Source: Cellvibrionaceae bacterium
GTDB lineage: Bacteria > Pseudomonadota > Gammaproteobacteria > Pseudomonadales > Cellvibrionaceae
Reading direction: 5' to 3'
DNA length: 64,000 nucleotides
Assembly: GCA_034112445.1 (NCBI GenBank)
Contig: JAWUVI010000021.1
Coordinates: 12,815-76,814, forward strand
Shown here: positions 15,942-44,200 of the stretch, piece by piece
Position numbering within the stretch: position 1 is the stretch's first letter
Layout of the letters: the number at the start of each line of letters is the position of its first letter
Program-made: the position numbers and the translations under genes
Notes under the pieces: generated by a model
What the model saw: only the letters and a program-made list of their open reading frames with translations
Databases searched by the model: none
Told to the model about the DNA's origin: nothing

Positions 15942-16754
15942 TTACAAACTGGCTAGACACTTAATTCCCGCTGGTAATTCTCCTTTAGGGTTCGCCAACT
16001 CTGCTCTGATTCGATAAGTCCCACTGGCTGCATCAATAATAGGGTCAACCATGGTGATTTTCGCTTGGTATTGACCATTAATCGGTGCCTCTGGATAAAT
16101 AGTCAAACTCCCCTTGGCAGAAATACTACCAAAGCTTTCATAAGGCATAACCAATTCAACTTTTAACGGATCTAAACGCGCAAGCGTTAATACTGGGTCA
16201 GTGCCGACAAACTCTCCAGACTCGTTAAACAAATCAATGACCACCCCATTGATTGGGCTTTTAATTTTTCTTAAATCCAAAACCTCACGGGAGTGGCGCA
16301 ACTCTTTTTGTGACACCTGATATTCAGTAGCAAATTCATCCCGCTCATGTATTGATATGAGGTCTTCATTATAAAGACTGTCATTTCGTTCAACTTGGCG
16401 CTGGGCAAATTCAGACCGAACTTTTGCTAGCTCAACCGACGCTGCTTCGACACCAGACTTGAGTGAAAATATAGGCTGCCCCTTACGAACTTTATCACCC
16501 AATTTAACTGAAACTGAATCTATTACGCCAGGTACTGGACTACTAATATCCACACGCATACTTGGCTCAATCATGCAGCCCATGGCCGGCAAATACTGTA
16601 TCACCACTGGTTGAGTAAGCTTGTTTTCTAGCGTGCTGGTTTCTATAGCACTTATCTCTAATGTATTTACCCCTGAAGTACTTGGCTCTTGAGCCAAGCT
16701 GGAAACACACACACACGATAAAATAAAGCTCGCTAGGCATTGCTTCAATGCCAT
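15942..16754 (-). CDS. Exported HlyD/membrane-fusion-protein-like periplasmic adaptor (short form)
   Basis: 270 aa. Signal peptide MALKQCLASFILSCVCVSSLAQE. Lipoyl/barrel-sandwich halves (GVIDSVSVKLGDKVRKGQPIFSL and IKSPINGVVIDL) separated by a short helical hairpin. AGGAGG Shine-Dalgarno 6 nt upstream. The start overlaps the SecA-like stop by 10 nt. Confidence 0.75.
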   Translation of the reverse strand: MALKQCLASFILSCVCVSSLAQEPSTSGVNTLEISAIETSTLENKLTQPVVIQYLPAMGCMIEPSMRVDISSPVPGVIDSVSVKLGDKVRKGQPIFSLKSGVEAASVELAKVRSEFAQRQVERNDSLYNEDLISIHERDEFATEYQVSQKELRHSREVLDLRKIKSPINGVVIDLFNESGEFVGTDPVLTLARLDPLKVELVMPYESFGSISAKGSLTIYPEAPINGQYQAKITMVDPIIDAASGTYRIRAELANPKGELPAGIKCLASL

Positions 16755-22911: not shown

Positions 22912-23199
22912 TTATTCGGCGTTATCACCAATAGCACCAAAGCGGTTCTCATACTCATCGACTACTTTACCCAACAACAAACTCAAACGTTTGGCCGCAT
23001 ACGGGTTTAAAATAATACGATCAGAAAGGTTAATCGCCACTTCTTTCTGGCCCGTATGCCATGTCTGATTGGTTCCAAACAATAATGTGACTTCCTCACG
23101 AGTACTCGACACATTACACACATTCGCATACGAACTGCGCATTTGTGAATCATTCCACGTTAATTTTGGTGTGTTTTGCGCCTGCTTTTTATCGGTCAT
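22912..23199 (-). CDS. Small cytoplasmic protein, DUF3467-like
   Basis: 95 aa with an AAGGA Shine-Dalgarno upstream. Pattern SSYANVCNVSSTREEVTLLFG...RIILNPYAAKRLSLLLGKVVDEYENRFGAI matches my recollection of the DUF3467 family. No signal peptide. It lies immediately downstream of the giant gene (42-nt gap). Confidence 0.6.
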   Translation of the reverse strand: MTDKKQAQNTPKLTWNDSQMRSSYANVCNVSSTREEVTLLFGTNQTWHTGQKEVAINLSDRIILNPYAAKRLSLLLGKVVDEYENRFGAIGDNAE

Positions 23200-23241
23200 T
23201 GTTCATCCTTAATTTATAGTGTGTTAATTGTTTTGTTTGGT

Positions 23242-26200
23242 TTATTTACTCGTCTTACGACGAACTAGCTCACCATCACTCCAAGTAAACAGATTCTGCT
23301 CTTTGGCTTTTTGTGTCATTAATTCTTCTGAATTCTCAACACTGTAGCTCTGTTTGTTTTGGGTTTTCTGGCGAACTTGCCAGCCACGTCGCATGGCAGC
23401 CAAAGATATTACACCCAAGATAGCTTCAGCTCCACGACTAACACCTGAATTGTCATCGGAGTCAACGTTCGATACCTTCATCGTCGCATCATCCTCAGCT
23501 TTCTCTTGTGGAATTGGGTTGCCATCTTCATCAAGAAGCACACAGCCTTCCGGTATAATTGGATCGCCGTTTTCATCAAGTTCAACTTCAATGGGCTCGC
23601 CGTTTTCATCGACAACTTGAACGTCACATGAGACCTCAGACTCACCAGTATCTTCAGTTTCTTCACCAGCCGCCGTAGCCGGTAAGCTCTGTAAAAAGTC
23701 TTGCAGAGAATCATTAGCCGATGCGCCTTCACTTCCCGTACCCACTCGTACCAGCAATAAATTACTGCTGTGGATATTGGTGGTGAATTCGCCCGCTACT
23801 TGATAAACGTCTGACCAATCCAAGTCCAACTCAATGGCGAAGGCGCTGTAGTATTGCCCCTGAGTCGCACCGATTAATTCAAGCGATGCTGGATCCGTAG
23901 AAATCAGTACACCACCAACGGTTTGAGTAAAGCGACCATAACCACCCAAGGCGATATCTTCTATGAAGTTGGCCTCAAACAAATCACTCTCGTGTCCGCC
24001 AAGTAACCAATCAAATCCTTCACCACCATCAATGGTATCGGCGCCACCTTTTAACGGATCGATCGTATCAGCAAAGAACTGGCCGACTTGATCGTAACCG
24101 ATGATGCCGAAATCACCGAAGATGATGTCATTACCAGCGTCACCATAAAGTTCATCTTCGGCGCCGCCACCCATAATCCAGTCGTTGTCATCGCCACCAT
24201 GAACCACATCCTGACCGCCTTGGTCAGGCAAGGTGGTTACCATTTCAACAAAGACATCATTCTGGAAGGTCATTTCACCGCTGTCAGCCAAGACCATATC
24301 GTCCCCGGCACCTGCATCAACGGTATCGTCATCAAGGCCAGCAATAATACGATCCTTACCGGCACCTGAGTCGATTGAATCATCACCCGTAGTACTTGGG
24401 TCTGAATCAGTTGAGGCTAAGCGAGACGCTATGCCATTGGTGTATTCAATGATGCCGTTATCACCAAAGATGTCATCGTCACCACCGGTGGTAGTAATCG
24501 TGTCATCGCCCTGACCTGCCAGGATGGTGTTGTCTCCGCCAGTGCTGCGAATTATGTCCTTACCGCCATTGATGAGATCAGTGTTCTCGATGGTTTCAAT
24601 AACACCGGCTGAATCGTAATTAATCTCGCCGTTGTCACCAATGACGCGATCATTGCCTGTGCCCGTATCCACGGTATCACTACCTTGGCCTGCAATAACG
24701 GTGTTATCACCTTCGCCTGCATCAATAACGTCATCACCACCTAGGTCGGTTACCGTACTGGTGGCGCGAGTTAAAATTGCGTCAACATAGATAAGTTCAC
24801 CGCTGTCAGCTAACACAACATCGTTACCAGAGCTCGTGGTGATTTGGTCGTTATCTAGACCGGCAATAATACGATTATTACCAATACCCGCATTAATAAT
24901 GTCGTCGCCTGTAGTGGACTCATCAACATCAATGGAAACCAAGCGAGAAGCAACACCAGTGGTGTATTCAATTAAGCCGTTATCACCAAATATGTCATCA
25001 TCGCCATCGAGTGTAGTAACCGTGTCGTTACCTTGACCAGCAATAATAACGTTACCGCCATGGCCAGCGGTAATAACGTCATTGGCGCCATTAACAATAG
25101 ATGTACTGCTCAGACGATCAATAACTCCCGCTGTTGTCCAAATCATTTCGCCGCTATCGCCAATGATATGATTAGAACCCGCACCGGCTGTTACTGTATC
25201 TTCACCATTACCGGCGATGATCCAACCAGTAACGTCCGTTAATGTAATTTGATCATTACCGCCTTCAGTCTCAACTGTAGAGACCATGCGGGTAACAACA
25301 TCATTAACCACTTCTATTTGACCATTATCAGCTAAGACATGAGCCGTTCCAGCATCAACGGTAACAACATCATCACCGAGTCCAGCTAATACGCGATTAT
25401 TACCATCCGTTACCGTAATCGTATCTATTGATGCTGTAGCAGGCGTTATATCCGAAGTTTGTAGTAGAACAGCCAAGCCATTTGCATCGAAGTCAATAGA
25501 GCCATTGTCACCTATAAGATTATTGGTGCCGCTAGCATTAATCGTGTCCTCACCAAAGCCAGCAATAACACTGTTAACGCCAGTGCCGCCGACGGTAATA
25601 TCATCCGCGCCACCATTACCGGAGACATCGGATTCAATTCGCGAAATAACGCTACCGTTGTAAGTAATTGTACCTAGATCACCAATAACGACATTGCTGC
25701 CAAGGCTATCGATAACCGTGTCATTGCCTAATCCAGCAATGATTCGATCATCGCCTTCATTGCCCATTATGTAGTCATTACCCATAACACTGGTGCTATG
25801 CGATTGAATCGTAATAGCCATGGTGCTGGTGATTTCATCGGCAAACAATGGCGTCGCAGTACCATCGCTATTATCAGTAACTACGCCCTCATCGCCAAGG
25901 ATGATGTCAACACCTTCACCGCCGTATAAGTAGTCATCACTCGCACTACCAATAATCAAGTCATTACCAATTTGGCCATGGATACGTGTCGCCAAAGTTG
26001 AGCCACTGGCATTAACTGTATCGTCTCCATCTTGGCCAAAAATATCTAAGCGACGCGCTCCGGTATCGCCGCCAGTATTAAGAACGTCATGAGAGATGAC
26101 GTCAGTGACTGTGCTGGTAATACGATCGCTGCCTTCATTGCCATAAAGCGTGGTAACGCTAACATCCGAGCCTGTCACATCTTCAAAATAAACACCGGTG

Positions 26201-29200
26201 ACAGCAATAACATCAGCGCCTTGGCTAGCCCAAATAACCAGGTCGTTATTGTAATTTCCAGCGGTTGCGGTGTAAGTAATATCAGCTACGGCCATGCCAA
26301 CCATACGACCATTACTCAAAGTGGCGGTATCGGCTACTAGGCTGTCGAAATCACTGACGTACAGTGAGTTAGCATCAGCGCCGGCATCGATATTTAATAA
26401 GCCATTTATGCCATCTAAAGTACCGTGTGCCACGCCTATATTAGATAAATCACCATTAGCATCACTGGTGATATCTATTCGATCTTCACCGGCGTGCGTA
26501 TTGATATTAGTAACTGTGTTGCTGTTAGTTGATTGAACATTAATAACGTCAGCCGCAGAACCCGTATCAATATTGAGTGTGTCGACACCGTAATAGTTAA
26601 TACCGTTAGTGCGAGTTTCAAGCGAAGCATCACCAGCAGCAACGGTTAATGAAGCTGTTTCATGCTCACCTTGGAAGCTAATCAACCAACCCTCAGCGAT
26701 TTTAATCAAACCGAAGTTATTGGTATGCGGTAAAGCATCATTACTGTTATTTGGGTTCAGAATAAGAGTCAACGCATCTCTAAGAGCTTTTTCATCATCA
26801 ACTTCATTTCCAAGCCAATATTCAGCCCAATCGATATTGGTTGTGCCTAGCTCTTTGGGGCCCAGACCTTCAGGGTCAATTCCAATCACGGTTAATTGAT
26901 AATTACTGGTGCCATCAACTGTTAGAATCTGAGTGTTTCCTGCAACGCTAATAGGTGAACCATCACGTAGCGTGGTGATACGTGCATCGACAGAAATATC
27001 ATCCGCTGCGAACAGACCTGTTGTCGTAGGATCAATATCGACAGTCATTTGTGGAATATTAACACCCGACATTTCACCACCAAAGGTGATGCTGTATAGG
27101 TTGCCACTGGCTGATACTTCTCTTTCAACCGTAATGCCTTGCATATTGGTCATTTCTAGAAGAGTACCAAAGTGATTATTGAGTGCCATTGCCATGTCGT
27201 CAGAACTGATACCGTAGGCCATTGTGGCTATACCGTAATCAACCCCAAAGTTCATCCCGAAAGTTCCACCAGCGGCACGAATGGCTAACTGCTGTTTCTC
27301 CGCTAACGAAGGCATATCCAAACCAATCAAACTGGTGCGTCGAACTTGCAACTCATTGCTGACCTCATCACCAGAGTCATCAACATTAAGGATGTCTCCA
27401 ATATTATCGCCATCCGTTAGATCCGCTTCACCCATATCAATGGTCAGTAAGGCGGCAATTTCATCGGCCAACTGCTCATTACTGCGAACGGTAATAACAT
27501 CATCGCCCGCTTCAGTATTGATACTCGTCACACCTGAAACGGTTTTGACTAGAACATCGTCATCACCTTTACCGGTGGTGATGTTGGTTGCTCCCTCGTG
27601 AGTCGATTCAATGATGACCTGATCGATACCATGACCAAGGTCAAGACTCAGTATTTCAAGGCCTTCATAATGAATACCACCAGTAATATCAGTACCCGCA
27701 ATGGTCACATCATCGCCCATACCTAAGCCGTAAACGCGGCTTTCCGTTATGGTGACGCTTTCATCGGCCGGGCTATTACCGTTGTATATATTCAATACAT
27801 CCACTTGGACAGCTTCATCCACTCGGGTATTGAGGTTTACCGGACGAATAAAGTATGAGTCGGTAGGCAGTATGGTCATGTCCTCCGGTAGATCTAAGGT
27901 CAAGGTCGTTAAGTCTTCAGAAATACCCAATATATCGACAACGGTGAGTAGTTCGCCATTGCGCATGATGGATATTTCATAAGGATTATTCTCAATACGA
28001 GGATCAAAACCATCGGCAAATTCGTTGGATTCAGGATCCCAATGTTCAGCATTTGAATCACTAAATTCATTGCCTGAGACAAAGGTAATTAAACCGTCTT
28101 CTGGGAATAAATTAGTTTCCAGAGGAAGCATGACAGGATTATTGAGTTTGTAATCCGCTCCAATTTGTTCTCCGCCGTTTATAAATACTGGGCCACGTAT
28201 TTGATTAACTCGCTCTGAGCCAGGCGCAAATACTTTGACATCACCTCCATCAATGACCAAATCGTTAAAGGCTTGGACATCTATGGTGCGAATGTCACTC
28301 CAATCTCCGGCAGCTCCAGACGTAAATACTTCACTAGAAACAATTCCAGAATTTAAAATCACCTGAACCTCAGGGTCGAGTTCAGCGGCGTCGGTGAAGA
28401 CTAAATCACCGTTATAGGTTCTGGTTTCAACACCGGCAAAATCAACGGTCACGTCGGCATCTGGAGCACCCGAAAGAACCATGAAGTAATTGTCATCTTG
28501 CCAGTTTGGTGAGGTGTTATAGTCCAGATATTTATCCGCTACATCATAAGTGATTTCATAACGATCACCTTTGTTAATAACGATATCGGTACGATCTAGA
28601 GTAAACGTATCCGACTCTACGTCATAGAATGCAATGGTCGAAGATTCACCCGCATCTACACCCGACAACATAGTCAACGTCATACCTTTCAAATCAACAA
28701 AGTCTTCATCAAGACCATGCCCATCAAGAGAGATATTCAGTTGATAACTGTCAGTCATCCCCTGCTCCCATGTACTCGAATAAAGTACGTTATAGTCAGA
28801 GGTCGTGGTGGAGCTATAGGCCGCTAAATGGATGGCCTCAGGATCAAAGATGTCACCATTCAATTCATAATCGTATACATAGCTGGTTGTTATCACGTTA
28901 GCCGAACGGGAATAGTTAACTTCATAACCTACTTCAACACTGTAAAATCCAGCCGTATCAAACAATAACAACAGCATTGGATCATTGATGTCGGTACTAC
29001 CAACATCCAACTCGTCACTTAAATCCATTATTTCACTATTAGGAATGAGCACTCGGCTCTCGCCAGTTCCCTGATAGATTTTCAAATAAGGAACATAACT
29101 CGCTGTATAGGTAGTAGTGGTGTTTATCTGTTGAATGGTAAGTTCATCAAGATAATCAACAACTTGAGATCCCCAAAAGGTGTCTACCGTTTTAGTGTTA

Positions 29201-32200
29201 AATACAGGTGTCGATATAACTTCGTCATTCGTATAACTACTGGTGTCAGTAAACGATTTACCAAAATCAAGATCAAACAAGCCTTGCGCCGAGGCAATAC
29301 GTTGTTGACTGATAACGGCATCATCTATCTGATTGCCATCCCCAATGACAATAGTTGCACCATTAGCGGTTGCATTATTGGTTAAACCCGCGGCCTCTAA
29401 TTGCAACATCAACCAATCAGCAACAATATTATTAATTGGTTCTGCCACCGTAACAGCGGCTATGTCTGCTTGGGTCACTTCATGAGTAAACGCAACACCA
29501 TTCACCGTCACCATCCAAACATCCCCAATAGCCGGAGAGCTGTCAGCGTTCAGATCAAGAGTGAACTTATCCCAGCGATCGTGTGTATTATCCCATGTTG
29601 GAGCTGGTAAGATTTCTGCATTTTTAATGATTAAGTTGGCGTCTATTTGCCCTTCATCTGCAGCCACAATAACCAATTCATCTCCAGAAGCGGTTACATC
29701 ATAACCGCTACCAAAGTGAGTACTGATCGCCAAGGCCATAGCGTCTAGGTCAGTTGTTGCGGTGCCAATATAAGGTTGCACACCAGACCCGGCGATAGTA
29801 ACAGTCCATTGATCACCAGCTGAAATTAATCCGCTGACATCGATGCTTTGCTCATAAACCGTAACAGTACTTGTTGTAGGCGAGGCTGACGTAATGACAT
29901 CGGCATGCAACGTCAGATTGGGAGCCGCGCCATTTGTGCGTTTAATCAACAAAGTATTGCTATTGGAATCATAAGTAGCCGTATAAGAACCACCAAAATC
30001 ACCCGCTAAATTGTCACCGATGGTACCCAATGCCAGGGATCCATCTGATTCACTAGAGACAACCGTTGAACCTGACAAAACACTCCAATTAGCTGCTGTG
30101 ACGGTATTATCCAACACTAATTTTTGTTGATACTGGCTATTGGAGGAAGCAAACGTGCCATTACCTGAAGCGGACGAGGTTGCTGTCGAAATGCCGCTGC
30201 CACTTGCGGCGGCGATAGCCGTTAATCCAACGCTAAACGATGTTGAATCTATCGAAGTAACAACATAATCAGAACTGAGAGTATTACTTAGGTAAGAACG
30301 TAAATCAGCCGTAACATCCGCCAACGAAGGCCGATCTGCTACATCCGTGAAACTGGCCGTGTAGGTTTTAGTCACCCCATCAATATTGATGGTCCAAGAC
30401 TGGCCACTGCTAACTTGTCCGGCATCGCCTACGGTAAAGGTACGCTGAATTAATTCTGATGAAGCTCCTTGTATCTGCTCATCCTCAGTAACCGTAAGAG
30501 AAACGCTTTTAGAACCAGCATCGACAATTGAAAGCTCATTACCATTAGAAAATCCAGAGTACTCAATTCGGTAATCAGAACCTAGACCTGGTGCTGTGTC
30601 GGTTTTGACTTTAGCGATTAAGCCATTGGCTATTTCGGTGAACGTTGGGTTGCTATCGGTTGGGTAAGTAAAGGTATCACTGCCAATGGTTAGCGCCCAT
30701 ACCTGACCGGTACCATATGCAGATACAGAAGATAAAACAAAATCATTCTCTTGCAGTTCAGTCGACGACTGAGATGAAACTACAGTCGTCTCATGATCTA
30801 CGTCTAGTCGGAATCCAACTTCAGTATTGCTAATCTGTACACTCTTATTATCAGCACTACGAGTCACATTAAAGAAGGTGTTTACAGAGCCATAAAACTG
30901 AGTATTAAGACCAGTGCTAGCATGATTCAACTGGTTGAATAAATCTGTCGTTAGAGAAATATCTGTACTGCTAGGACCTGCAGTAACGGTGTACTCTTCA
31001 CCACTCACATTGACAGTCCAAACATCTCCATCAGTGACAGAAGCAGGAAAATCTATCGTAGAGCTAAGACGCCAGCCACCAGCTGCACCAGTATCACCAA
31101 CATCAGCAGGACTATTGTTGGGAGCTCCAGCTGGACCGGACAACATGTCGGTTGTTACTTCTATAACATAATTATCTTTGTAGTAAGAACCACCGCCTTC
31201 AATGGTGAGGTGATGCATTGAGTCATCAATAGAGCCATCAAGGGTACCAATATTATCATTGGGTTGATCGTACCAGCCGGTGTTCTTACCTGTGATGCTA
31301 TCCGTACTGACCTGTTGACCTGTGGTTAATTTAGATTCTGCTTCATTCTCCAACAGCGGTGCAGGTATAAATTTAAATTCGGCAACCTCTTGGTTTTCAA
31401 GACCGAGGTGTAACTTATAATCTACGCCTTCAGGAACACCGGTTCCGTAAGTCGCTGATTTGTTGGTTCTACCATCGACTTCAAGAACGTAGATGCCAGC
31501 CGTATTAATTGTTGCTGATAAGCGAGCATCATTGATGCTTGTGCTACCAGAGTCGGTTGTCGAACTACCAAAACCAGTAATACTCACTGGTACGTATTCA
31601 CCATCAATTAATTGCAAAAGGCGTAAACTACTCTGCCACCAAATACCATCTCCTGACTCATACCCCGAATCAATATCAGCGCTAAAACTTACAGGACCTT
31701 CTTTGACAACAAACTCGTAATAGTCACGGCTATCATCGCCGGTGCCATTAACGGTTATATGAGGTCTGTCTTCAGACAGTTCGATGTCATCGCTAACAGC
31801 CTCACTCCAACGTGCAAGACTGAGGTCTTGAGCCGTAGCCATGGAATCATTGCCCACTAACTCTTCTACTTCAGCAAGACCAACACTGCCTGTAAATAAA
31901 TTGCCAGCGGCATCAGTAATCGCTTCACCTTGAGCCAGTACACCTGTTGTAGCACGCTCTGCCACTTGGGTAGTGGAGTCACTTTGTAAGCGATAAGAGG
32001 TGATAATGTCATCGACAGTTGAGTCAATACCATCCATATCGGTAATGACTCTCTCAAGTAACAACAGAGTTGGTTCGTCACCATCGGCGATGGTGACGTC
32101 GACTACGCCCATATTAAAGCCGTCGTAGTTAGTGTCTTCACTGGTCACTGTATGAGTAATTCGCCCGTAGTGTGTTCCTTCAACCACATCATCCGCATTC

Positions 32201-35200
32201 GCTTTAAAGGTAACGGTTTGCACATCGCGCCAGTTGTCTTTAGTGAACTTGAGGGTCACCGAATTGGCAAAAGTTACACCATCATCATCACTGAGCGACA
32301 ACTGGCCATCAGTATCAGCCGTTCCGTCAGCCGCTATGGTAACGAATACATCTTCTGCAGGCTCTTGACTCAACACAACTCGATAGCTGTCTTTATTCAA
32401 CTCAGTAATATCTTCAGCAACTAATGGCGAACCATTGTTTTGACTGATAACAACAGACGCTGAATCTTCATCGATTACTTGTACCACCATACGGCTTAAA
32501 GAAAGCCTATCGTAGTCATCACCATCCTGATCGGTAAGACCTTCCATCACACTGTGACGAATTTCTACTGATTGATTGCCTTCGGCGTAATTATCTTCAA
32601 GCGCTGTCACAGTAATGGTTTGAGCAATAAACCAGTTACTTCTGTCAAATAATAACGTCGTGGCTGTTTCATTACCGTTAAGAGCAACGCCTTTAGCGCC
32701 AGCTTCTTGTTCATCTTCAGTTGGAACAACGGCTGTTGCAGAGATACGTACAACATCTTCTGGCGGTCTAGTTAAGACCACTTCGTAAGTTGTAACACTA
32801 TTTGGATCAACCAATGCAGTGCCGTCTTCATCTTCATAAGCGCGGAGTGACCCCGCGATTGGACGAATCAAGACACCGGCTTCATCGGCATCCATTACAT
32901 TAGCTGAAATCATTGCCTTGATGGCATCTAAACGCTCATCGGTGCTGGTTACAATATTTTCAATCAGGCCGCTATGACCAAGCAAATCATCGGCAACCAC
33001 CGATACAGCATCGCCATCATTACCACCAGCCATTTCAAAGGTGTCACTGCCTAAACCGCCAACTAAATTGAGCTGTACGTTTTCATTCGTGCTGTAAACA
33101 AAGAAAGTATCGTTACCTTCCATGCCATCGATGACCAGTTTTTCGATACCTTCAAAGTTGGTGAAGCGCCCTGCTCCATAAACGCCTGTATCAGTAATAA
33201 CAAAATCATCACCAAATTCAGTACCTAAAATAGTGACTGTATCTAAGCCATCACCACCAGAAATATTAACCGGAGCATTTAAAGCGTAACTGATAAAGTC
33301 AGCGCCCTGACCACCATTAATATTAGTAAACGGTGCTTGAGGATCATCAGGATTAACCAACACGAAACTACGAATTAAGAAGGTATCGTTATCTTCATCA
33401 CCATAGAGTGAAATTTCTTTAGTGTTTCGATAAATAGTGAAACTGTCTTCACCTGTGCCACCGCGCAATGTCGCGGGGAAGCTAATGCCGTTACTGATAA
33501 AACCTTTTGTAACCAACGTTGTATCAAAGATATCTTTTGGTTCAATAGGAGACAAACCAGACAATGCATCACGTGGCGAGTTGAATACCTGACCCACTTG
33601 GAAGTTATCGTTACCAGCATCGCCAAATACGGTTAATGCCGCGCTGGTATCATCGAAAGTAAAGTTGTCATCGCCGTCACGACCATAAACGTTAATGCCA
33701 CCATTGAGATCGCTACCATAGTTGACTCGCTCGATGTCACTTCCAGCAACACGATTACCATTGCTGTCTAATTCCATTTGCATCGCATTAATAGAGTTTG
33801 GACGGAACAGGAAGTCATCGACATCATCGGTGCCAAATACGTTCAAGGTATTTATGGCATCTAAATCACCAGCTGATTGATCATCAATATTAATAATTGA
33901 TGACCCAGAACCCGCCAGGGCAATATTGTAAAAATCTGAGCCCTCTTGACCATATAGGTTCAACACACCACCAATACCATTGAGGAATGTTTGTTGATTA
34001 AACTTGTCAAAGTTCACATTAATAGTGTCATCGTCACCATCACCAGCAAAAACAGAGGCCTGAAGACCTGTTCCTGAGAGATTAAGAGTGTCACCACCAG
34101 AGCCTAACTTAATCGTTGTATTTTCGGCTTTCTGTACAGAAACATGAACTTGATCGGCACCTGATCCTGTATCCAAAACCACTCGATTAAAGGTGTTATT
34201 AGCGATGATATTGACTTCATCGGCACCAAAACCTGAATCGACCGTTAAGTTATCCATAACGGTATCGCTGATGATATTAATTACATCTGCACCGCCACCA
34301 GTGTTAAGCGTAATGTCTAGCCAATCAACACCCTCGGTAATATTAACGGTATCGTCAATGTCATGAATTTGAGTCACCACATCATCAAGCGGATCATCAT
34401 TACCTTGATCGTCTATGTCGTCAGCATTAACATTGAACGTGGCATTCTCAAAACCGCGTAACCACAAGCCACTCCAATCGCTATTTTCAAGCTCAATGGT
34501 ATCGTAGCTAACGTCATAGGCCGTATAGTCAAGGCCATCTGTATCAAGTTTGCGACCTTCTACATAATCATTAGTAACTTTTACATCTACTGTGGTGGTT
34601 TTATTAACCGTGATGGTTTCTGGCAAGTAGAAACCAGCGGTATCTTGGAAGGTCGTAATATCAACACTGTACTCATCGCTCGTGCTATCACCGTTTTTAT
34701 CTAAAATGAGGCCGTCACTCAAGGTTGCCTTAACCGCAACGGAGTTTTGTAATTGCGTCACCCGAATCAATTTGTCGACATTAACTTGAGTGAATTGTGT
34801 TCCGATTCCTGAAGTATCAACACCACTCGGTGCCGCACTGATTAGTGCCGCACGATAAGCCGACCAGTTATCAGCCGTTAGATAGAGCTCTTCAGTTTCA
34901 CCGTATTTAACCCCAAAAGCATCTTTTAGATCCGCGGTATATTCCAGCAAATCTTCAAGCGCCACAGGCGCATTAAAGCGATTAATAGCAACGCCTTCTA
35001 GAGCTGGATCGCCATTGGCTGCCACACCATAGTACGAATAGGTGTAATAACTTGTATTCAATGCCGCCAAGGCATCGGCATAAGCCATTTCCATCGCGAT
35101 GGTATTGCCCTTTGGCGCTTCAATAGAGCTAGACACTGAGGTAGTAGGATCAGCAGTCATTTCGCCTACGGTATAAATAATACTGAGCAGACGCAGTGTG

Positions 35201-38200
35201 TCGCCGGTTAAGTCGTTTTCAGCCAGTTTGCTCGTGACATTCTTATCACCAGCAACCAAGCCAGAATACTTACTTATTTCTTCCGCTGTATGTGTTTTTT
35301 GGAACCACTCATTGGCATCGTCTAATAAGCCTTGATCCCACAGTTCCTGACTGTACTCATAGGTCGCTATGCGTTTAGACAAATCTATATCGCTGCGAGT
35401 GTAAACCGTAAGGTTTGTATCACCGCTCCACGTATAATCATCCTTCAGCTCATTTTTGGCAGAAGCTAAAGTGACGTAATCATAAACACTTTGCATCGCG
35501 TCTTTAACGCTTTGAACGCTAGGTGTACTTTCTATCCAATCACGCAAATCAGTATCGATCATTAAGGCGTTCAAACGATCAATAGAAAAGGCGCCAGACC
35601 CCGTTATTTTTTCACCGCTTGAATCTAGCTGACCAATTAACTCTTGGCCTTTCTTAGCAAAATTCTCAAGATAGATAACAAGAGACTGCTGTGCGTCAGA
35701 TACAGGCGCTAATGCGGTGATTTCTGCACGCAATATGGCAAGAACATCCGATAGTACAAACTCTTCTTCCTGCGTATCTATCTGTAGCGTGATCGTTGCA
35801 TCGCTTAAGCTCGCATCCGATAAGCCATCAAGCATACCGAATTGAGTTTGTTTGTTAGCACGCTCAAGCGCGGCTTGTACGTCAGCGTGATCCACATCAC
35901 TTAATAAGCCAGTGAATTCCAATACAGCATTGCCTTGAGCGTCCAAGACAGGTTGGCCGCTGCTATTAAGTACAGGGGTTCCGGCAGACACAAAATTTCC
36001 TGCGTCATCAAGATACGAAATCAGGCTGATGTCTTGGTTGTATTGATATTCAGCCAAATTGAGATCTATTCGGCCAACGTTTAAATCAGCACCTGCGGCT
36101 TCTTTTATATTAAGGGTTATAGAATCGCTATTACCGGGTCCGCCAGCAAGCCGAACAGTTCCGGCTATACGAGCCAAGTCGTAATTTGCAGGTAATATTT
36201 TGCTAACAGTACGTTGAGTTAAGTCGTCAAAGCGATAAGACGCTTCACCATCCACCTCTAATGAAATGTAGTCTTGCGATACGTTGACCTTGCTATCGTT
36301 CGGTAAAATCGCTTCAGGCTCATAGAACATTGAGATTAAATCACGGAATAAATTACCGCCCTGACCTTCGCTGTGTCTATCTTTTGAAATCCAGTGCTGC
36401 TCTGAAGCTCCACCACCATCAATAGCGCCTAAAGGCACGTTCACCGTGTAAGTACGAGACTCCCAACTGGCATCAAACAACCAGTTCCAGTCCCAGTAAT
36501 ATTCTGTAACAGTCTGAGGATAAGTAATTTGGCCAGTGTTGAGATCATCTACATACAAATCTGGATCATAACCCCATTGATCCTGGCGAGTAGCGTCATA
36601 AATTCCCGTATGAGCGCCACCATTGCCGTTATCAACAGAGTTATAAACTTGATCCGCGTGTATATAACCGCCCCATATACTGTAGGCAACCGCGTAACGC
36701 AGGTACTCATTAAAGAAGGTCTCATCCAAGCTACGAGAACTTCCCGCTTGTAAATCACGGTCTTCATTAATAACCGAACCGGTTAACAATTCATCCCAAT
36801 CACTGCCATTACCGTCGCCAAGATTTTCTAAAGCAACAAGTTGTTCAGCGGTTAATACCGCGCGATCGGGCGCTAGGTTCAACAAGGTTTGATAGGAGAT
36901 ATCATCCGGTAAAGTTGGAGCTGTAGAACCGAGCCCAAAGCCAATTTCGAAATCTTCGCCATTAGCGCCGCTCAAACCGGTCATTAGATTACCCAACATC
37001 GCCTGCTCAAAGGCGTCAACATCATCGCCGTACTGATTCGAGCCATAAAATGCTTCGTTAAGCTCTCTGTATACGTTGGTCGTAGGATCACTAAAATCAA
37101 CTTGATCCCATACCGTAGTGCCTGCAACAGGTGCATCCATTGCCCGTTCAACTGCCTGCGAATAGAGTTTTAATACAACCGACAAGTTGGCTTCGAGCAA
37201 TTTCCAATGGACGGAATCCATTTTCACTGCATCAATATCTTCTTGCTTAGAACTGATCCACTTGGCGAAAAACAAACGGAACAAGTCTTCTTTCTCTTGC
37301 TCCGTTTCTAACGCTCTTTTCTTAAAGATAATCTCGTTGAAATCAAGATCGGCATCACCATCGGTTTGAGTCTCTAAAACTTTCTTTTCAACGGTATAGA
37401 TCGCACTGCTTTCAGGATAGGTGACATCAAAATCAACCTGTTCGCCACCCATGATGACTTCATCATCGCCAGAACCGGTGTTAATCAACAATTCTAGCTC
37501 GGCATTCAAACCGTATAGATAAACTTCATCATCATCACCGCCCGTTAAAATAGCTAAGCGTTCGATATTACTGACACCTTCGATTTTAAGGCCAGCACCG
37601 TAGATAAATTGCTTACCTTCGTTATCGGTAAAGACATAAAACACATCGGCCAATGCCGTACCTGCCAGCACAACCGTATCAAAACCTGAGCCACCATTTA
37701 TCAGTACGCGGTTGTTTTGCACGTAATTCAATAAGACGTCTTTATCAGACTCTTCAATATTATTTTCTGCGTCGCCTGCACCTGCTGTAATGGTACTGCC
37801 GTCGAGCTCCGTGCCATCAGCTTGTAAGTGAGCGCGTAAGAAAAAGGTATCGTCGCCTGACTGACCAAACAATTTGAGTTCACCAATGTTGTGATTGACC
37901 TCAAAGTAGTCATCGCCAGAACCACCAAAGAATTCACCGTTATAGCTGACACCGGCGGTAATACCTTCGGTGCCGTCGACGGCGTCAATAACTCGACCGT
38001 CATCTAGAGTCACTTCGGTGGTTTCAATAACACGACCAATAAGGAAGTTATCAGCGCCTTCGTCACCATAAACAAAGGTAGCGGCCATGCTGTCGTCAGA
38101 AATGATGGTGTCATTACCAGCACCACCATGTATTTCTACGTTTTCAGCGCCACGGTTGTAATACACACGCTGGAATTCATCAGGGCTCGACAATGATATA

Positions 38201-41200
38201 GACGGAGCTGTAGTGGCTGCCGCATCGGCAATATCCATTGGATCACTGATAAATGAATTATCAGCGACAGTAAAGTTCGAGAAATTACCTTTGCTGTCTT
38301 TAGCACCATCAATAATTTCGATACGCCATGGATCACGGTGAGTACCAGCACCAGCTACAGAAACCTCATTGATACCTGGAAGCTTTTCTAGCTCGGTAGT
38401 TAAATAATCGATTCGCGCTTGCTTGCGTAGAATATTTTCAGCTTTAGTAAAGTTAACATCATCGTTCGGGTTTGTAGGCAACGTGAAGACGTGTGAATCG
38501 GTTGTAGCCGAATCATTATCGTCATAACTCAGAGTAAATACTGTGCTTGGATCTGTATGGGTTGAGCGCACATAAAACTGCTGTAAAGCAAACTGTGGCT
38601 TATCAAACATGGCATCCACATCGGGTTTGCCTGCTAGTAACGCATCGGTTAAATCGGCATTTAAGCGCTGTACGTAAGCTCGCGCCACCTTGGCATCAGC
38701 AATAGACTTATCACTACTAAATAATTTGTAGTATTTACCTTCAGAATTAGCGTCAGCATCAATAATATCGATAAGCCAAGCATCATCTTCTGCACCAGTT
38801 CCTGTAACCGTAACGTTACGAATTCCGGCCAGTTTTTCTAATGCTGCTTTAATCGCTGCGGCTGAACTCGAACCGTCCAAAATGTCGGTTGTGGATTCTC
38901 CATGATACTCCAACGTAAATGCATCACTCGCAACATCGCTTGTATAAGTCACTTGCTGACTGGCCGTATCAACATCCATATGCAGGGTATCGGCTTGAAC
39001 CAATCCATTGCCCCCACCCCAGATTTCAACGCTGTCAGTTTCTTCCGTATTCGTGCCGCTATCGCGAACCTCAACGGACGACTCACCAGCAATCGCTCCA
39101 CTTAATGTAATCACATAGGTATCTGAGCCTTGATTACCATCCAAAATGGCTTGCTTAGTGAAATCGTTAATGGCAAAGCTGTTGTTAGACGCACCGCCAT
39201 ATAAGGCAAATTCTTCAAACAGCGCCATAGTGACTTCAGTTTCATCAACAGCTACTTGTCTAGTCTCTAAGTTAATAACGCCGTCTACCTGAACGGGGAA
39301 GATTCGATCTTCTATACCCGTAATGTGCAACGTAGAGTTTGACAGTGAGTAATTGAGATCGCGAATTTCAAGCAAGGTGTCTATATCACCAGAACCTTCT
39401 AACGAGCCATCAATGAAGGTATCGACCCCGGCGCCACCGGTAACCAAATCACTACCGGTACCTGAATCGATAGTGTCACCTAGGTGATTGTCACCTACTG
39501 ACAATTGAGTGCCTACAATTCGGTCATCACCAGCACCGCCGACAAGGGTTAGGTTATCGACAACATGGGCGGTAATTATTTCATGAGATTCAATTGCGGT
39601 GATGTCTTCAGGCAGGAAGCCAGCAATAATAATATCATTACCACCTATAACTGGATCACCATTTGAATCTACCGCATTGGTATTGGCATCACCTTTGATA
39701 GTGACATTATCGCGATTACCTGTAATGGGTGCATTCTCGGACATATCATCGGCATTACCATCAAGGTCAATGCCACGAACAATAATGCTTAGATTACGAT
39801 TTTCAGCGATACCGTTTTCATCGATACGATGATGATCTACTTGTAGAACGTCAGTATAAATTGTCTGCGCATCAGTACCGGCACCAGTGACTAAATGGCC
39901 GACAGTGAACGAATCATCTTCAGCGTTTGAACCGGCAATGGTTATGCTATCAACCGCATCATCATTGACATAGGTTGGGTCTAAGAACCAATCGGTTTCT
40001 CCGGTTTTTTGTAACACAGCACCATCAACTGGCTCATTACCTTCTACCCGAACACCATCTTTGTAGTAGGCCCAAACGTCTTTTTCTTTCATCCGTGGGC
40101 CAAGTTCTTCAACGGTCTGATAGGCTGAAATATAGACATCGGCCGACGCATCTGACTGTGCTGTGGTCAATACAGCGAGCTGCGGATTGCTGTCAGAAAT
40201 TGTTTGTAATACCCAACTGCCACTTTCATTGAGTTTCTCAATGGTGTGGAAGGTAGTAACGGTATTTTGTTTCACAGCTTCAAAATCAGAAAAACTGTAT
40301 TGCGCGGTTAATGTTTTAGCTGAATCAAAACTGCCTATAACAAACGCCCAAGGCTCTAAAACAGTGCCTTTACCTTGGACCTCAATAGTTCCGACAGAAG
40401 GGAAAGCGGTAGATAATTGCGATAACAAAGAGGCTTTAACGGCATCTACTTCTGCTTGTGTTGCTGAACTGGATAACCAAGTAAAGTTAATCGCTGCAAC
40501 AGCTGAACCATCGTATGAGAAACCCGCTGAACTGACGCCAAAAGGAATATTAATCGATGCCGATGTACTGCTGTCTGCAGTCGCTTCGGCCACTTGTGGA
40601 TCAAGATCAAAATTAATCGCTAATAATAAATTGCCCATGATTGCGCTAACAATTTTAAATTGTCCGTTTTCATAGGTCACTGCAGCGTCACTTAAAGGTG
40701 ATGAAGAACTCAACAAGCTCTGTAAAGCCACCGCTTTAGCTTCATTTGTGGTCACATCCGTAGTCGCTGAACCAAAGCTGACGCCTAAATCAACTGGGTG
40801 TGACGGATCAATGTTTAGGGTTGTGCCATCAATTATAAATTCAGGTGGTAAAAATTGAGTGGTTATTTCGGTAACGGTATTAAGACTGACTGTTTCACGC
40901 ATTTCTTGAACAGCAACAACATTCGCAAAACTGTGTAATGCGCCTGCACCTGTGCGATCTGCTTCAACAAACGCGACAGACCAAGCAACAGACCAAGGGT
41001 CTTCAGCAGTCACTTGTCTGGCTACTTGTACATTCGTAATACCGTTAAGAGCCTCTAACGCCGCCTCTACTTCTGCGGCGGTCATGTCGGCTTTAATTAA
41101 CGCTTTTTCACCGTTGTAAGAGAAGTATGCACTCGATTGCCACGCTTCCAAACCAATGATTCGCTCAGCCACATCGGCCGTTCGAGTTTCATGTTTTTTA

Positions 41201-44200
41201 CCATGAGTTAACACCGCCGCTGATGAAGCCGCATTTAACTGCAGATATTCACCATTAACATTATCAGCCGAGACCAACGTAACTAACCAGTTACCGGCAA
41301 CTCCGGTAACTTTAACCTGATCAATACCGGTTAAGGATTCCAATGCTTCGGTAATAGAAATCGAGGAACCACTAAAGTTGATATCGACACCTTGGCCGCC
41401 ATACCAAACGGTTTGCGTATCACTGATACTTAATGTTTGAAGGCTATTGTCAATAACATTTCTATTGACAGATACAGTGCGATCGACTGCCTCTAACTCA
41501 GCAAAGAAAAACTTACTAAAGGTATCTTCGGGGTTAGCAATTGGAGTTAACGTAATTGCCCAGTCTGTTTTAAGCGGGTTATCGCCGTTTTCTGATTTCA
41601 CCACCGCAACGTTAGCGTTACTTAACGATTCAAATGCTTCTAGAGCCGCGACTAGTTCAGCGGCTGTCATAGAATCCGTTAGGGTGAGCGAATCATCGCC
41701 ATACCAAAGTTGAGTTTCGTCTGCGGTTAATACGGTAATGGTTTGCGCTGGATCACCATCAACTGGATCACCATCAACTACATCAGCCTGCAACCTAGAT
41801 TTCTGAGCCTTAAGGACAGAGACAGACAATGTAGAAGGCGTGGCTTCATGGAAGGTTATTTCCCAAGGATCAGCCGCTAAGGTAGGTATAACAACACTGA
41901 CATTGCCTAACAAGCTTGCAATGGCACTGGCACGTTGCTCCTTAGACAAACCGACAGCATTAACTGAACCAACGGCAACTCCACCATAACTAAACGCTAA
42001 TTCAGCCGCATCAGCAGGCCAAACGAAGCCTTGTCTCATTAAATTACTTTGGCTTTCAATACTGGCTAGAGTGTCAGTAAGGGTATAGATGACAGTCGTA
42101 TCTACAGATGTTCCACCGTTAACAAATTCAATCACCTCGGCCGCATTCGTAAACACAAATTCCCAAGGTGACTCTTCCGTACCATCACCCGTTACGGTAA
42201 CTGAATTGCCTGAAGCGGCGAGGATAATATTGAGTTGTGCTTGGATATTGATTGGGGATTTTGAACCGCCCAATTCATCGATCGCAAAGCCCTGATCGCC
42301 ATACCAAATAATGCCATTGGTTTCAAAACTCGCTAACGCCAGCAGTTGAATTTTGTTATCAACGAATTCATCCGCATTGACTGTATTTTCAACCAATAAA
42401 GGCTCACCAGAAGCGTCATACAAATACTCAGCGGTCTGGCTGTCTAATCGATAAAACACGTTATTTGAGCGAGTGTCATTATTTTGCAACAAGCTACCCG
42501 TATGGGCTTGCACACTGTATTCATAACCCAATAACTTAGTGACGGCTGATGTGAAAGTAATTACCCAAGGATTGGTTTCTGAGCCTGTGGTACCGGCTGC
42601 AACAGAGACTTGGCTCGCATCAATACTGGCCATAGTTGCCAGTGCAACTTCAATTTCAGTTGCCGACATGCCTTTACTGATTGTTACGCTGTCAGCCGTT
42701 GAATTAGAACCCAAATATAAAGTGACTTGATCTAAGCCATCATCAATCCACAGTGTTTGCTCTGTTTTATCATTAGCAAGACTGGTGTCTTCGGCTGTTT
42801 TAGCTTTGGTAATTAATTCAGGTGAACCATCATCATTAAACTTATAGGTGCCGCCTTCTTCTAGATCGTAACGGTAGAAATAACTACTGCGTTGATAACC
42901 ATCTATTAAGGTTTCTGGCTCAGTTGGAACCAAGATGGGGAAGCCGTTGGAGTCAGTGACAACAATGGTTTCACCATTGACGTCTAACACTAAAGTTCCC
43001 GCGTCATCGCGCAACAGTTTTGGTTCTTTTTGTAATAGTGAAGCGTAATTCGCAGGGTACACTTGGTGGTTACCCTCAGAGTCACGCTCTATTTGATACA
43101 TGGTAGCCTGCTCGTTACCAAGCTGAACATCCACTGACAGTAAGCTGGTATCAAGCAGATCATCAACGGTGATTGTGTCTTCACCGCCTTTCGCGTCGAG
43201 CATAATGTTTTCAACATTAAGGTCTAAGCTGTCGCCATTAATTGTTAGTGTCGCGAAGTTTGGCAAACCAGAACCGATGGCCCTGCCGCTGTCGGTTATA
43301 TTAATCGTACTGTCAGAATCATCGGTGGTGGCTTTTAAGGTGTCTACACCTGCCCCGCCATCAACTTCTAGTAACGCGTTAGGATCAGTTATATCCGCGT
43401 ATTCCCAAACGATAAGATCATCACCCGCATCACCATAGGCACGAACAGCCCCAGTACCAGCGTAAATTGAGTCATTACCTGTACCGCCGTAAATTACATT
43501 ACCACCATCAGAGGTTATAGAGCTGTCACGTGGATCACCGCCATACAGTTGATCCCAACCACCATCGCCATAAATAACGTCACTGCCAGCACCGCCATAA
43601 ATAACGTCGCCATGGAAAGATCGAATAATGACGGCCACGCCACCAATATCATACGGTGTCGCTGAGTAATCACCCGATTCGTTAACGATGAATGAGGAAC
43701 TGGCCACATCGTAATAATGAGTACCGTTACCTTCGTCGGTTATGTATTCACCGGTATCCGTATCAAGTTTAAAATCGCCTACTTTGGCAATGCGGAAAAT
43801 ACCTAAGTCATTATCAAACAAGAAAGGTCCATTCGCTTGATTTGCAAAGACAGAAGGAAAACCAAACTCGTTATAGCCCAGTAAACTGTTGGCTGTACCG
43901 TCACCAAAGCGCTCACCATCTGGCTGGTATATTTCTGCATTGCGCAACACACCATTCACATCAACGTAAACGGCTGCCACTTCGTCTCCACCGCGAATGA
44001 CATCATCGCCTGCGTAGGTTGCTATAACATCAAAACCTGTGCCGCCCTGAACAATGTCATCGCCAAAACCACCAAAGATAGTATCGTCGCCTGAACCACC
44101 GTCAAGAGTCATGGAGCCTGGGCTTGGAACAGAGGAGTTACCGCCATAAGCTGCATTCTGGCCGGTTACTTTCAAGGTGTCCTTACCGGCATCACCAGTC

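Follow-up and report, generated by a model that had tools for sequence, protein, structure and literature searches.

In the accessory Sec system, SecA2 and SecY2 together with the small cytoplasmic proteins Asp1–3 escort very large serine-rich adhesins. SecB has a core of about 140 amino acids (aa), made of a four-stranded sheet and two helices; as a tetramer it binds both pre-proteins in their unfolded state and the C-terminal, zinc-binding tail of SecA. Here we analyze a stretch of 64,000 nucleotides (nt) from a Cellvibrionaceae bacterium (contig JAWUVI010000021.1, positions 12,815–76,814; hereafter the window), in which a small protein of the Pfam family DUF3467 is encoded in an operon with the order TolC, giant gene, DUF3467, GAF-HlyD, PqqD/M50-HlyD, SecA-like ATPase, and small HlyD. 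The likeness to the accessory Sec system is one of concept, namely a dedicated SecA paralogue and small cytoplasmic accessory proteins for one very large surface protein; however, no homology is seen, the operon has HlyD adaptors and TolC and no SecY2, the cell has a double membrane, and with every SecA2 model the score of the ATPase falls short of the cut-off. The genes for GAF-HlyD, Peptidase_M50-HlyD, a short SecA_DEAD protein, a small HlyD, and sometimes OEP/TolC also make up, as here, a secondary SecA_DEAD/type-I-secretion-related locus that was described computationally and proposed to be a laterally transferred module related to secretion (Kamneva, Poudel, and Ward 2015, PLoS One; PMC4452313). 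Unlike the present analysis, that paper includes neither DUF3467, nor any small fifth protein, nor a link to giant substrate genes (PMC4452313). We show that DUF3467 marks one clade of these SecA_DEAD/M50-HlyD systems, and the best explanation of the DUF3467 proteins of this type, which we call exporter-type, is that they are a clade-specific accessory subunit of the TolC/HlyD/PqqD-M50/SecA-like set found beside giant LEPR-leader proteins.

The open reading frame (ORF) at 22912–23199, which starts with ATG and encodes the protein MTDKKQAQNT...IGDNAE, is confirmed as genuine, and its family match lies far beyond chance: Pfam DUF3467 (PF11950) is matched with an E-value of 1.4e-22 (80 bits against a cut-off of 25) over profile positions 2–90 of 92. 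The initial annotation, which described a DUF3467-like protein of 95 aa directly after the giant gene, is thus borne out, with the addition that the gene lies on the minus strand, which had been omitted. Its description as soluble, free of a signal, and encoded between the giant and the translocon-like genes likewise agrees with the gene order and with inspection of the protein, in which no signal peptide or membrane segment is visible and the N-terminus is hydrophilic. DUF3467 is the sole family that Pfam assigns to the protein, with no match to the SecB family, and no NCBIfam model matches it. A genome-wide profile scan finds this one copy and no paralogue in the window's genome, and the family as a whole is large, with more than 2,594 homologues in one protein collection and 1,412 clusters at 50% identity in another. 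Two segments of the window protein, YANVCNVSSTREEVTLLFG and ILNPYAAKRL, fall in columns that do not vary across the family alignment; they correspond to the exporter-type signatures YANVCNV[SA]S and [IM][LM][NS]P[YFH]AAKR[LM], which also served as patterns in our scan of GTDB species genomes. The exporter-type subfamily is further marked by a W-D-D motif near the N-terminus and an eight-residue NQTWxxGQ insert, both of which the window protein has, and by its position, which in the window is after the giant gene and directly 5' of the genes for GAF-HlyD and the PqqD/M50-HlyD fusion. The window's copy is an ordinary member of a large, functionally unstudied subfamily. Our literature search on DUF3467 and LEPR-XLL found no functional study, and the preprints on giant genes do not describe the DUF3467 protein; a DUF3467 protein of Porphyromonas gingivalis is listed as induced by chlorhexidine (PMC11986949).

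The gene neighborhood of the exporter-type subfamily is highly conserved. Scanning one genome per GTDB species gave 486 loci coding for a relative, the best 80 of which were annotated, with counts limited to loci whose contig reaches far enough (loci and genomes are cited below by our L and G numbers). These 80 loci span at least six phyla (Gammaproteobacteria, Thermodesulfobacteriota, Acidobacteriota, Latescibacterota, Bacteroidota, and others). An M50-HlyD gene lies downstream of DUF3467 in 68 of 72 loci and a SecA-like gene in 61 of 68. On the other side, DUF3467 is directly preceded by the end of an ORF of 500 aa or more in 63 of 72 loci, and in 35 of 47 this preceding ORF is 3,000 aa or longer. 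The window's order of giant, DUF3467, GAF-HlyD, M50, SecA-like, and HlyD genes recurs in Simiduia and in the scaly-snail endosymbiont. Co-occurrence was counted in two samples of 61 genomes each, one of the window organism's relatives and one of Bacteroidota, drawn regardless of DUF3467: of the 15 genomes with the matching M50-HlyD clade, 11 encode exporter-type DUF3467, and none of the 107 others does (Fisher p ~1e-12). The tightest neighbor of DUF3467 is the GAF-HlyD gene and not the giant gene: in 70 of 76 loci no more than 400 base pairs (bp) separate the end of DUF3467 from the GAF-HlyD start, and at five loci (L075, L083, L092, L108, and L131) the exporter follows DUF3467 with no giant gene just upstream. 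These observations favor a rival explanation in which DUF3467 is a structural or regulatory subunit on the cytoplasmic face of the exporter, at the GAF region, the M50 protein, or the ATPase, and would gate or assemble the machine with no contact to the substrate; orphan copies far from the exporter (L081, L087, and L098) speak against it.

Our phylogenetic analysis of 114 M50-HlyD proteins places every DUF3467-linked system in a single clade of 79 rows (local support 98; both the FastTree support values and the sampling of DUF3467-positive loci are reasons for caution), and DUF3467 is found in 0 of the 35 rows outside this clade; the counts in the two unbiased samples are independent of the deep branches of this tree. 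Four members of the clade (in G025, G043, G018, and G092) lack DUF3467 and have no copy elsewhere in their genomes, and SecA-like genes are not confined to this clade (outside it, L044, L190, L204, and L205). Given that all DUF3467-linked systems fall in one M50-HlyD clade, the simplest history is that DUF3467 was gained once by an exporter lineage that already had its SecA-like motor, spread with it across phyla, and was lost about four times.

DUF3467 is the most constrained part of the system. In 53 complete loci compared with the window's proteins as reference, the median identity is 69% for DUF3467, 48% for the small HlyD, 45% for the SecA-like ATPase, 38% for M50-HlyD, and 33% for both GAF-HlyD and the C-terminus of the giant protein, and the mean corrected distance is 0.32 for DUF3467 versus 0.70–1.64 for each other operon domain, the ATPase core included. 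Such extreme conservation speaks against DUF3467 having co-evolved with the hypervariable body of the substrate and points to an invariant partner, to several simultaneous interfaces, or to both. Very slow evolution would also suit a core exporter subunit with several interfaces; however, no domain of the operon evolves faster than the GAF region next door (mean distance 1.64 versus 0.32), which is unlike a tightly co-evolving pair. A separate candidate, DUF3467 as a small leader-bearing substrate of the M50 protease, was rejected: a LEPR-like motif is absent from the protein, and the core is conserved far too strongly.

The initial annotation proposed DUF3467 as a dedicated factor for the SecA-like motor. 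Membership in the secretion-like gene set stands, at about 90% of the 80 loci, while the specific pairing with SecA does not. SecA-like exporters without DUF3467 are found at eight loci (L040–L042, L044, L184, L190, L204, and L205), and Moraxellaceae exporters keep DUF3467, GAF-HlyD, M50-HlyD, and the small adaptor and have no recognizable SecA-like gene. In its position they carry an ORF of 565–634 aa (L104:14083-15987, L106:5975-7780, and L093:9138-10835) with no Pfam match and no BLASTP similarity to the SecA-like ATPase, and the DUF3467-bearing exporter of L070 has no ATPase gene at this position at all. Because each partner thus occurs in exporters that lack the other, DUF3467 is not tied to the SecA-like motor. 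As the initial annotation had also recognized, the ATPase of the window is SecA-like and lacks the SecB-binding tail: its only Pfam matches are SecA_DEAD, SecA_PP_bind, and P-loop_SecA, corresponding to the first nucleotide-binding domain (NBD1), the preprotein cross-linking domain (PPXD), and NBD2; no wing/scaffold, SEC-C, or SecB-binding tail was found with Pfam, and the protein scores below every SecA and SecA2 equivalog cut-off.

The further suggestion of a SecB-like relationship, made from a faint resemblance by eye, is not supported. Alignment of a 92-sequence DUF3467 profile to SecB with hhalign pairs only 13 columns, ILNPYAAKRLSLL with ILFPYAREAIDNA, at a probability of 0.15% and an E-value of 0.4; the SecB profile consisted of 16 sequences, all gammaproteobacterial, which limits its sensitivity. 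These 13 columns are exactly the segment that had been picked by eye. Foldseek with the better of our two structural models (described below) gives nothing below an E-value of 0.5 against the PDB and no SecB among the 50 matches listed, and searches of PDB sequences, whether with the protein alone or with either of two family profiles, give nothing, or one chance match at an E-value of 1. The family also occurs in Methanosarcina, whereas to our knowledge archaea have neither SecA nor SecB. SecB homology is accordingly rejected by the profile comparison, Foldseek, Pfam, the PDB profile searches, and the presence of the family in archaea. A holdase of SecB fold or ancestry that keeps the giant chain unfolded and docks onto the SecA-like motor in a new way would fit the observation that the sole hhalign segment, ILNPYAAKRL against ILFPYARE, starts a long helix after a sheet in both proteins, and the gross order of sheet then helix is similar; both proteins are also small, cytoplasmic, and without a signal peptide, have a short xILxPYAxx motif where the helix begins, and would, on the role that we propose for DUF3467, keep or deliver an export substrate. 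However, the DUF3467 core of about 75 aa is roughly half the size of that of SecB, a canonical SecB is already encoded elsewhere in the genome, the family extends to contexts unrelated to secretion, and the mismatch between DUF3467 and SecA-like genes, in both directions, is difficult to reconcile with a SecA-docking chaperone; together with the failed profile and fold comparisons and the missing tail of the ATPase, this makes such a holdase highly improbable.

A second setting of DUF3467 bears on what the protein may recognize. At two loci DUF3467 is fused to the N-terminus of an enzyme-like domain of about 300 aa (L212:10001-11236 and L214:10001-11188), and both fusions lie directly after giants, of 10,913 and 10,477 aa, respectively. 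The fusion genes are followed on the 3' side by a radical S-adenosylmethionine (radical-SAM) gene, a gene for a protein of about 290 aa of unknown function, and an O-methyltransferase gene. No exporter gene is present in the 10 kilobases (kb) after the fusions, and the fused domain has no Pfam, NCBIfam, or PDB sequence match. The common denominator of the exporter and fusion settings is the giant protein, and enzyme-fused DUF3467 beside giants and apart from an exporter is poorly accommodated by the exporter-subunit explanation, which on balance we consider possible but unlikely. The two settings resemble the usage of the PqqD-like recognition elements of ribosomally synthesized and post-translationally modified peptide (RiPP) pathways, which are small modules that occur by themselves or as N-terminal fusions to enzymes, within gene clusters for the processing of a precursor with a leader. 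The resemblance does not extend to homology: when aligned with hhalign to the PqqD-like region at the N-terminus of 24 M50-HlyD proteins, DUF3467 reaches a probability of 1% over 14 columns, and the predicted fold of DUF3467 is three strands and a long helix, not a winged helix–turn–helix.

This fold was predicted with AlphaFold2 from a diverse alignment of 92 sequences (predicted local distance difference test, pLDDT, 88; predicted template-modeling score, pTM, 0.65), and consists of strands at residues 27–32, 37–44, and 56–64 and a helix at 66–87; it replaces an earlier, poor model from a shallow alignment (pLDDT 72), the Foldseek search of which was uninformative and included a COMMD-like protein among its matches. 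The top PDB matches of the pLDDT 88 model, PUR-alpha, MRP1/MRP2, and Sub1/PC4, are below threshold (E-values above 0.5, template-modeling scores of 0.2–0.44). In a library of viral proteins, a phage COMM-domain protein is matched at an E-value of 0.19 and the best match is a protein of Rhodobacter phage RcapNL (H6WBQ2 in BFVD; E-value 1.8e-3, 23% identity over 79 columns); the other matches there are to uncharacterized phage proteins only. H6WBQ2 is itself an uncharacterized protein of 76 aa and may be a phage-borne relative. COMM domains consist of three strands and a helix and PC4/Whirly/PUR modules of four strands and a helix, both dimerize through sheet and helix, and the nucleic-acid-binding surfaces of PC4 and PUR are strongly basic (PMC13392464). 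In the predicted model the DUF3467 fold weakly resembles these dimer modules, having a small antiparallel sheet, then a long helix at the C-terminus, and, as in PUR-alpha, tandem forms (P0223 and P0255), and all of the weak Foldseek matches belong to this class; unlike these modules, DUF3467 has neither the helical HN domain nor a basic nucleic-acid-binding surface. Given that every match is below significance, we use this likeness as a description of architecture only. The two tandem proteins each have two divergent DUF3467 domains after a hydrophobic, signal-like N-terminal segment (with an RRRF motif in P0223), and, from these sequences, some members of the family may be membrane-anchored or exported.

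That the three top folds are single-strand binders raises the question of whether DUF3467 is a nucleic-acid-binding or expression factor, for example one that binds the 36-kb mRNA or couples export to the translation of the giant gene. A universally conserved partner such as RNA or the ribosome would be in line with the conservation seen across phyla in spite of transfer, and a distant DUF3467 subfamily adjoins mazG. However, the fold matches are sub-threshold, the charge of the protein is balanced (11 acidic and 11 basic residues), unlike the PC4 and PUR surfaces (PMC13392464), and the enzyme-like fusions are easier to explain by recruitment to a protein; we regard a nucleic-acid role as improbable.

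The distant subfamily accounts for 9 of 17 DUF3467 loci in Bacteroidota, is 26–34% identical, and lacks the NQTWxxGQ insert and the W-D-D motif. Its members lie in the order mazG, DUF3467, pgsA-like (CDP-alcohol phosphatidyltransferase), with no secretion genes nearby. Given this location, DUF3467 as a whole is not a secretion family, and the exporter-type subfamily is a recruited branch; the family is also found in Thermus. A DUF3467 that is a mere passenger, a small housekeeping-type protein traveling with the operon and playing no part in export, would be in keeping with this subfamily, which is plainly not secretion-linked, and with the four systems of the clade that do without the gene. 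It is difficult to reconcile with the constant operon position across at least six phyla, with the W-D-D motif and NQTWxxGQ insert, invariant features peculiar to the exporter-type protein, in what is the most constrained protein of the operon, and with co-occurrence in 11 of 15 versus 0 of 107 genomes, and we consider it very improbable.

Based on these results, a candidate chaperone or targeting role is the most plausible function of exporter-type DUF3467. We infer a dedicated, oligomeric, cytoplasmic adaptor for the giant pre-protein (probability about 0.42); the oligomeric state, the partner, and the adaptor or chaperone activity are all part of this inference. In this mechanism, the three-stranded sheet and the long C-terminal helix would most likely mediate assembly of DUF3467 into dimers or higher oligomers; in the cytoplasm, the oligomer would recognize some conserved feature of the giant pre-protein, probably either its N-terminal leader region or the chain as it emerges, and would hold the pre-protein or hand it to the cytoplasmic face of the exporter, and fused copies would bring enzyme-like proteins to the same giant substrate. 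We favor this adaptor because the use of DUF3467 both free-standing and fused to enzymes parallels that of leader-recognition domains in RiPP pathways. In a variant of the adaptor picture, enzymes and exporter would be tethered through binding of one DUF3467 domain to another. A more specific proposal, a "giant-protein recognition element" in which DUF3467, oligomerizing through a COMM/PC4-like unit of sheet and helix, reads the conserved N-terminal leader region of LEPR-type giants, with free copies loading the chain onto a SecA-like/M50/HlyD/TolC exporter that lacks an ATP-binding cassette (ABC) component and copies fused to radical-SAM-cluster enzymes recruiting tailoring enzymes to it, is, as a whole, rather unlikely.

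Several observations weigh against a dedicated adaptor. DUF3467 is not indispensable, since the four clade systems that lost the gene have no copy elsewhere, and a second leader reader is not obviously needed because the exporter already has a PqqD-like leader-binding domain. The ancestral role was not secretion, as judged from the distant Bacteroidota subfamily between mazG and pgsA and from the occurrence of the family in Thermus and Methanosarcina. All structural matches are below significance, and a mirror-tree style correlation of distances with nine operon domains reveals no preferred partner (r 0.64–0.80), the best partial correlation being with a periplasmic adaptor.

The operon itself is a single-strand run, with all genes from 60507 down to 15942 on the minus strand (table 1). 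The stop of the giant gene is separated from the DUF3467 start by a 42-bp spacer, which contains a Shine–Dalgarno-like AAGGAT, and the end of DUF3467 from the start of the GAF-HlyD gene by 72 bp. No minus-strand terminator was found in a scan between the giant gene and the GAF-HlyD gene, and neither a promoter and terminator scan nor RNA folding of the spacer between DUF3467 and GAF-HlyD gave anything beyond chance. The giant protein has at its N-terminus a basic extension, an LEPR-XLL-like motif (MEARNLLSADL), and DUF4347, and its C-terminus carries repeats-in-toxin (RTX)-like calcium-binding repeats (RTX-like NCBIfam matches in the last 400 aa). The GAF-HlyD adaptor includes a GAF-like cytoplasmic region of about 340 aa. 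The PqqD/M50-HlyD fusion is the hallmark protein of the exporter, and PqqD matches are seen in orthologues.

Table 1. Features of the exporter operon and loci of the distant DUF3467 subfamily (positions in the window unless a genome is named; E, E-value; RND, resistance-nodulation-division)
Feature	Position	Strand	Evidence
TolC-family outer-membrane channel, 442 aa	59179..60507	minus	Pfam OEP E 2.7e-49; TIGR01844 281.6 bits vs cut-off 225
Giant gene, 11,951 aa, presumed substrate	23242..59097	minus	ORF list, Pfam DUF4347 E 6e-50
Shine–Dalgarno-like AAGGAT	23205..23210 (plus-strand numbering)	minus	5 nt 5' of DUF3467 ATG; read from sequence
DUF3467 gene, exporter-type subfamily, 95 aa	22912..23199	minus	ORF and translation, Pfam PF11950
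GAF-HlyD periplasmic adaptor, 621 aa	20974..22839	minus	Pfam HlyD_D23, HlyD_3, GAF
PqqD-like / M50 intramembrane metalloprotease / HlyD fusion, 726 aa	18825..21005	minus	Pfam Peptidase_M50; NCBIfam daptide_HExxH E 1.1e-40
SecA-like ATPase, 695 aa	16745..18832	minus	Pfam SecA_DEAD E 3e-89, SecA_PP_bind, P-loop_SecA
Small HlyD/RND-type periplasmic adaptor, 270 aa, operon's last gene	15942..16754	minus	Pfam HlyD_D23, HlyD_3; TIGR01730 115 bits vs cut-off 94.9
Distant-subfamily DUF3467 loci L170–L179	Bacteroidota genomes G070, G078, G082, G090, G094, G106, G114, G118, G122		

The giant protein of the window (58930–59097, minus strand) begins with a basic segment of about 40 residues, MKYMFARMLQSKFARLRELRKY..., which precedes MEARNLLSADL. 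In a comparison with L216–L222 and L043–L051, the segment before the LEPR-like motif tends to be about 40–55 residues long and mostly basic in giants of DUF3467-bearing loci, and about 13–20 aa in giants of exporter loci that lack both SecA and DUF3467; this weak trend comes from small numbers with uncertain start codons, and G018, which has a SecA-like gene and no DUF3467, is an exception with a long segment. The window's genome also encodes, outside the window, a second, distant M50-HlyD paralogue (G000:C35:35352-36722, locus L055; about 23–25% identity), which has an HlyD-like neighbor, has no SecA-like or DUF3467 gene beside it, and belongs to a separate deep clade of the tree.

Some copies elsewhere are unusual. 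The Acidobacteriota genome G065 (L080:1154-2018 and L181:8965-11430) has three copies of DUF3467; two of them are adjacent, and the third makes up the C-terminal part of an ORF of 821 aa, the rest of which gives no Pfam match; no exporter genes lie beside these copies on their short contigs. The neighbors of the orphan and odd copies at L080, L081, L098, L181, and L168 are unrelated genes. Damaged-looking exporter copies, with M50 and SecA-like genes split or fused, are present at L005 and L006 (the scaly-snail endosymbiont and related metagenome contigs), insertion sequence (IS) elements lie upstream at L004 and L005, and the M50-HlyD gene at G028:C4:63644-65785 contains an in-frame TAA.

These results remove as wrong a tempting SecB-like annotation of DUF3467 and indicate that the Pfam family mixes at least two functionally distinct subfamilies. 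If DUF3467 does act as the recognition element of giant proteins considered above, it would parallel the RiPP recognition elements with an unrelated fold and with megadalton substrates. How bacteria export proteins of 5,000–15,000 residues without a classical type I ABC transporter is a question on which this widespread gene set beside such giants may bear, and DUF3467 is the smallest, most conserved, and experimentally easiest protein of the set, being soluble, 95 aa long, present in single copy in the window's genome, and found in cultured carriers such as Simiduia aestuariiviva CECT 8571, Amphritea atlantica DSM 18887, Psychromonas marina NBRC 103166, and Pseudomaricurvus species. It is therefore a tractable handle on an uncharacterized export system, and probably offers the cheapest test of giant-protein export and of what the machine recognizes.
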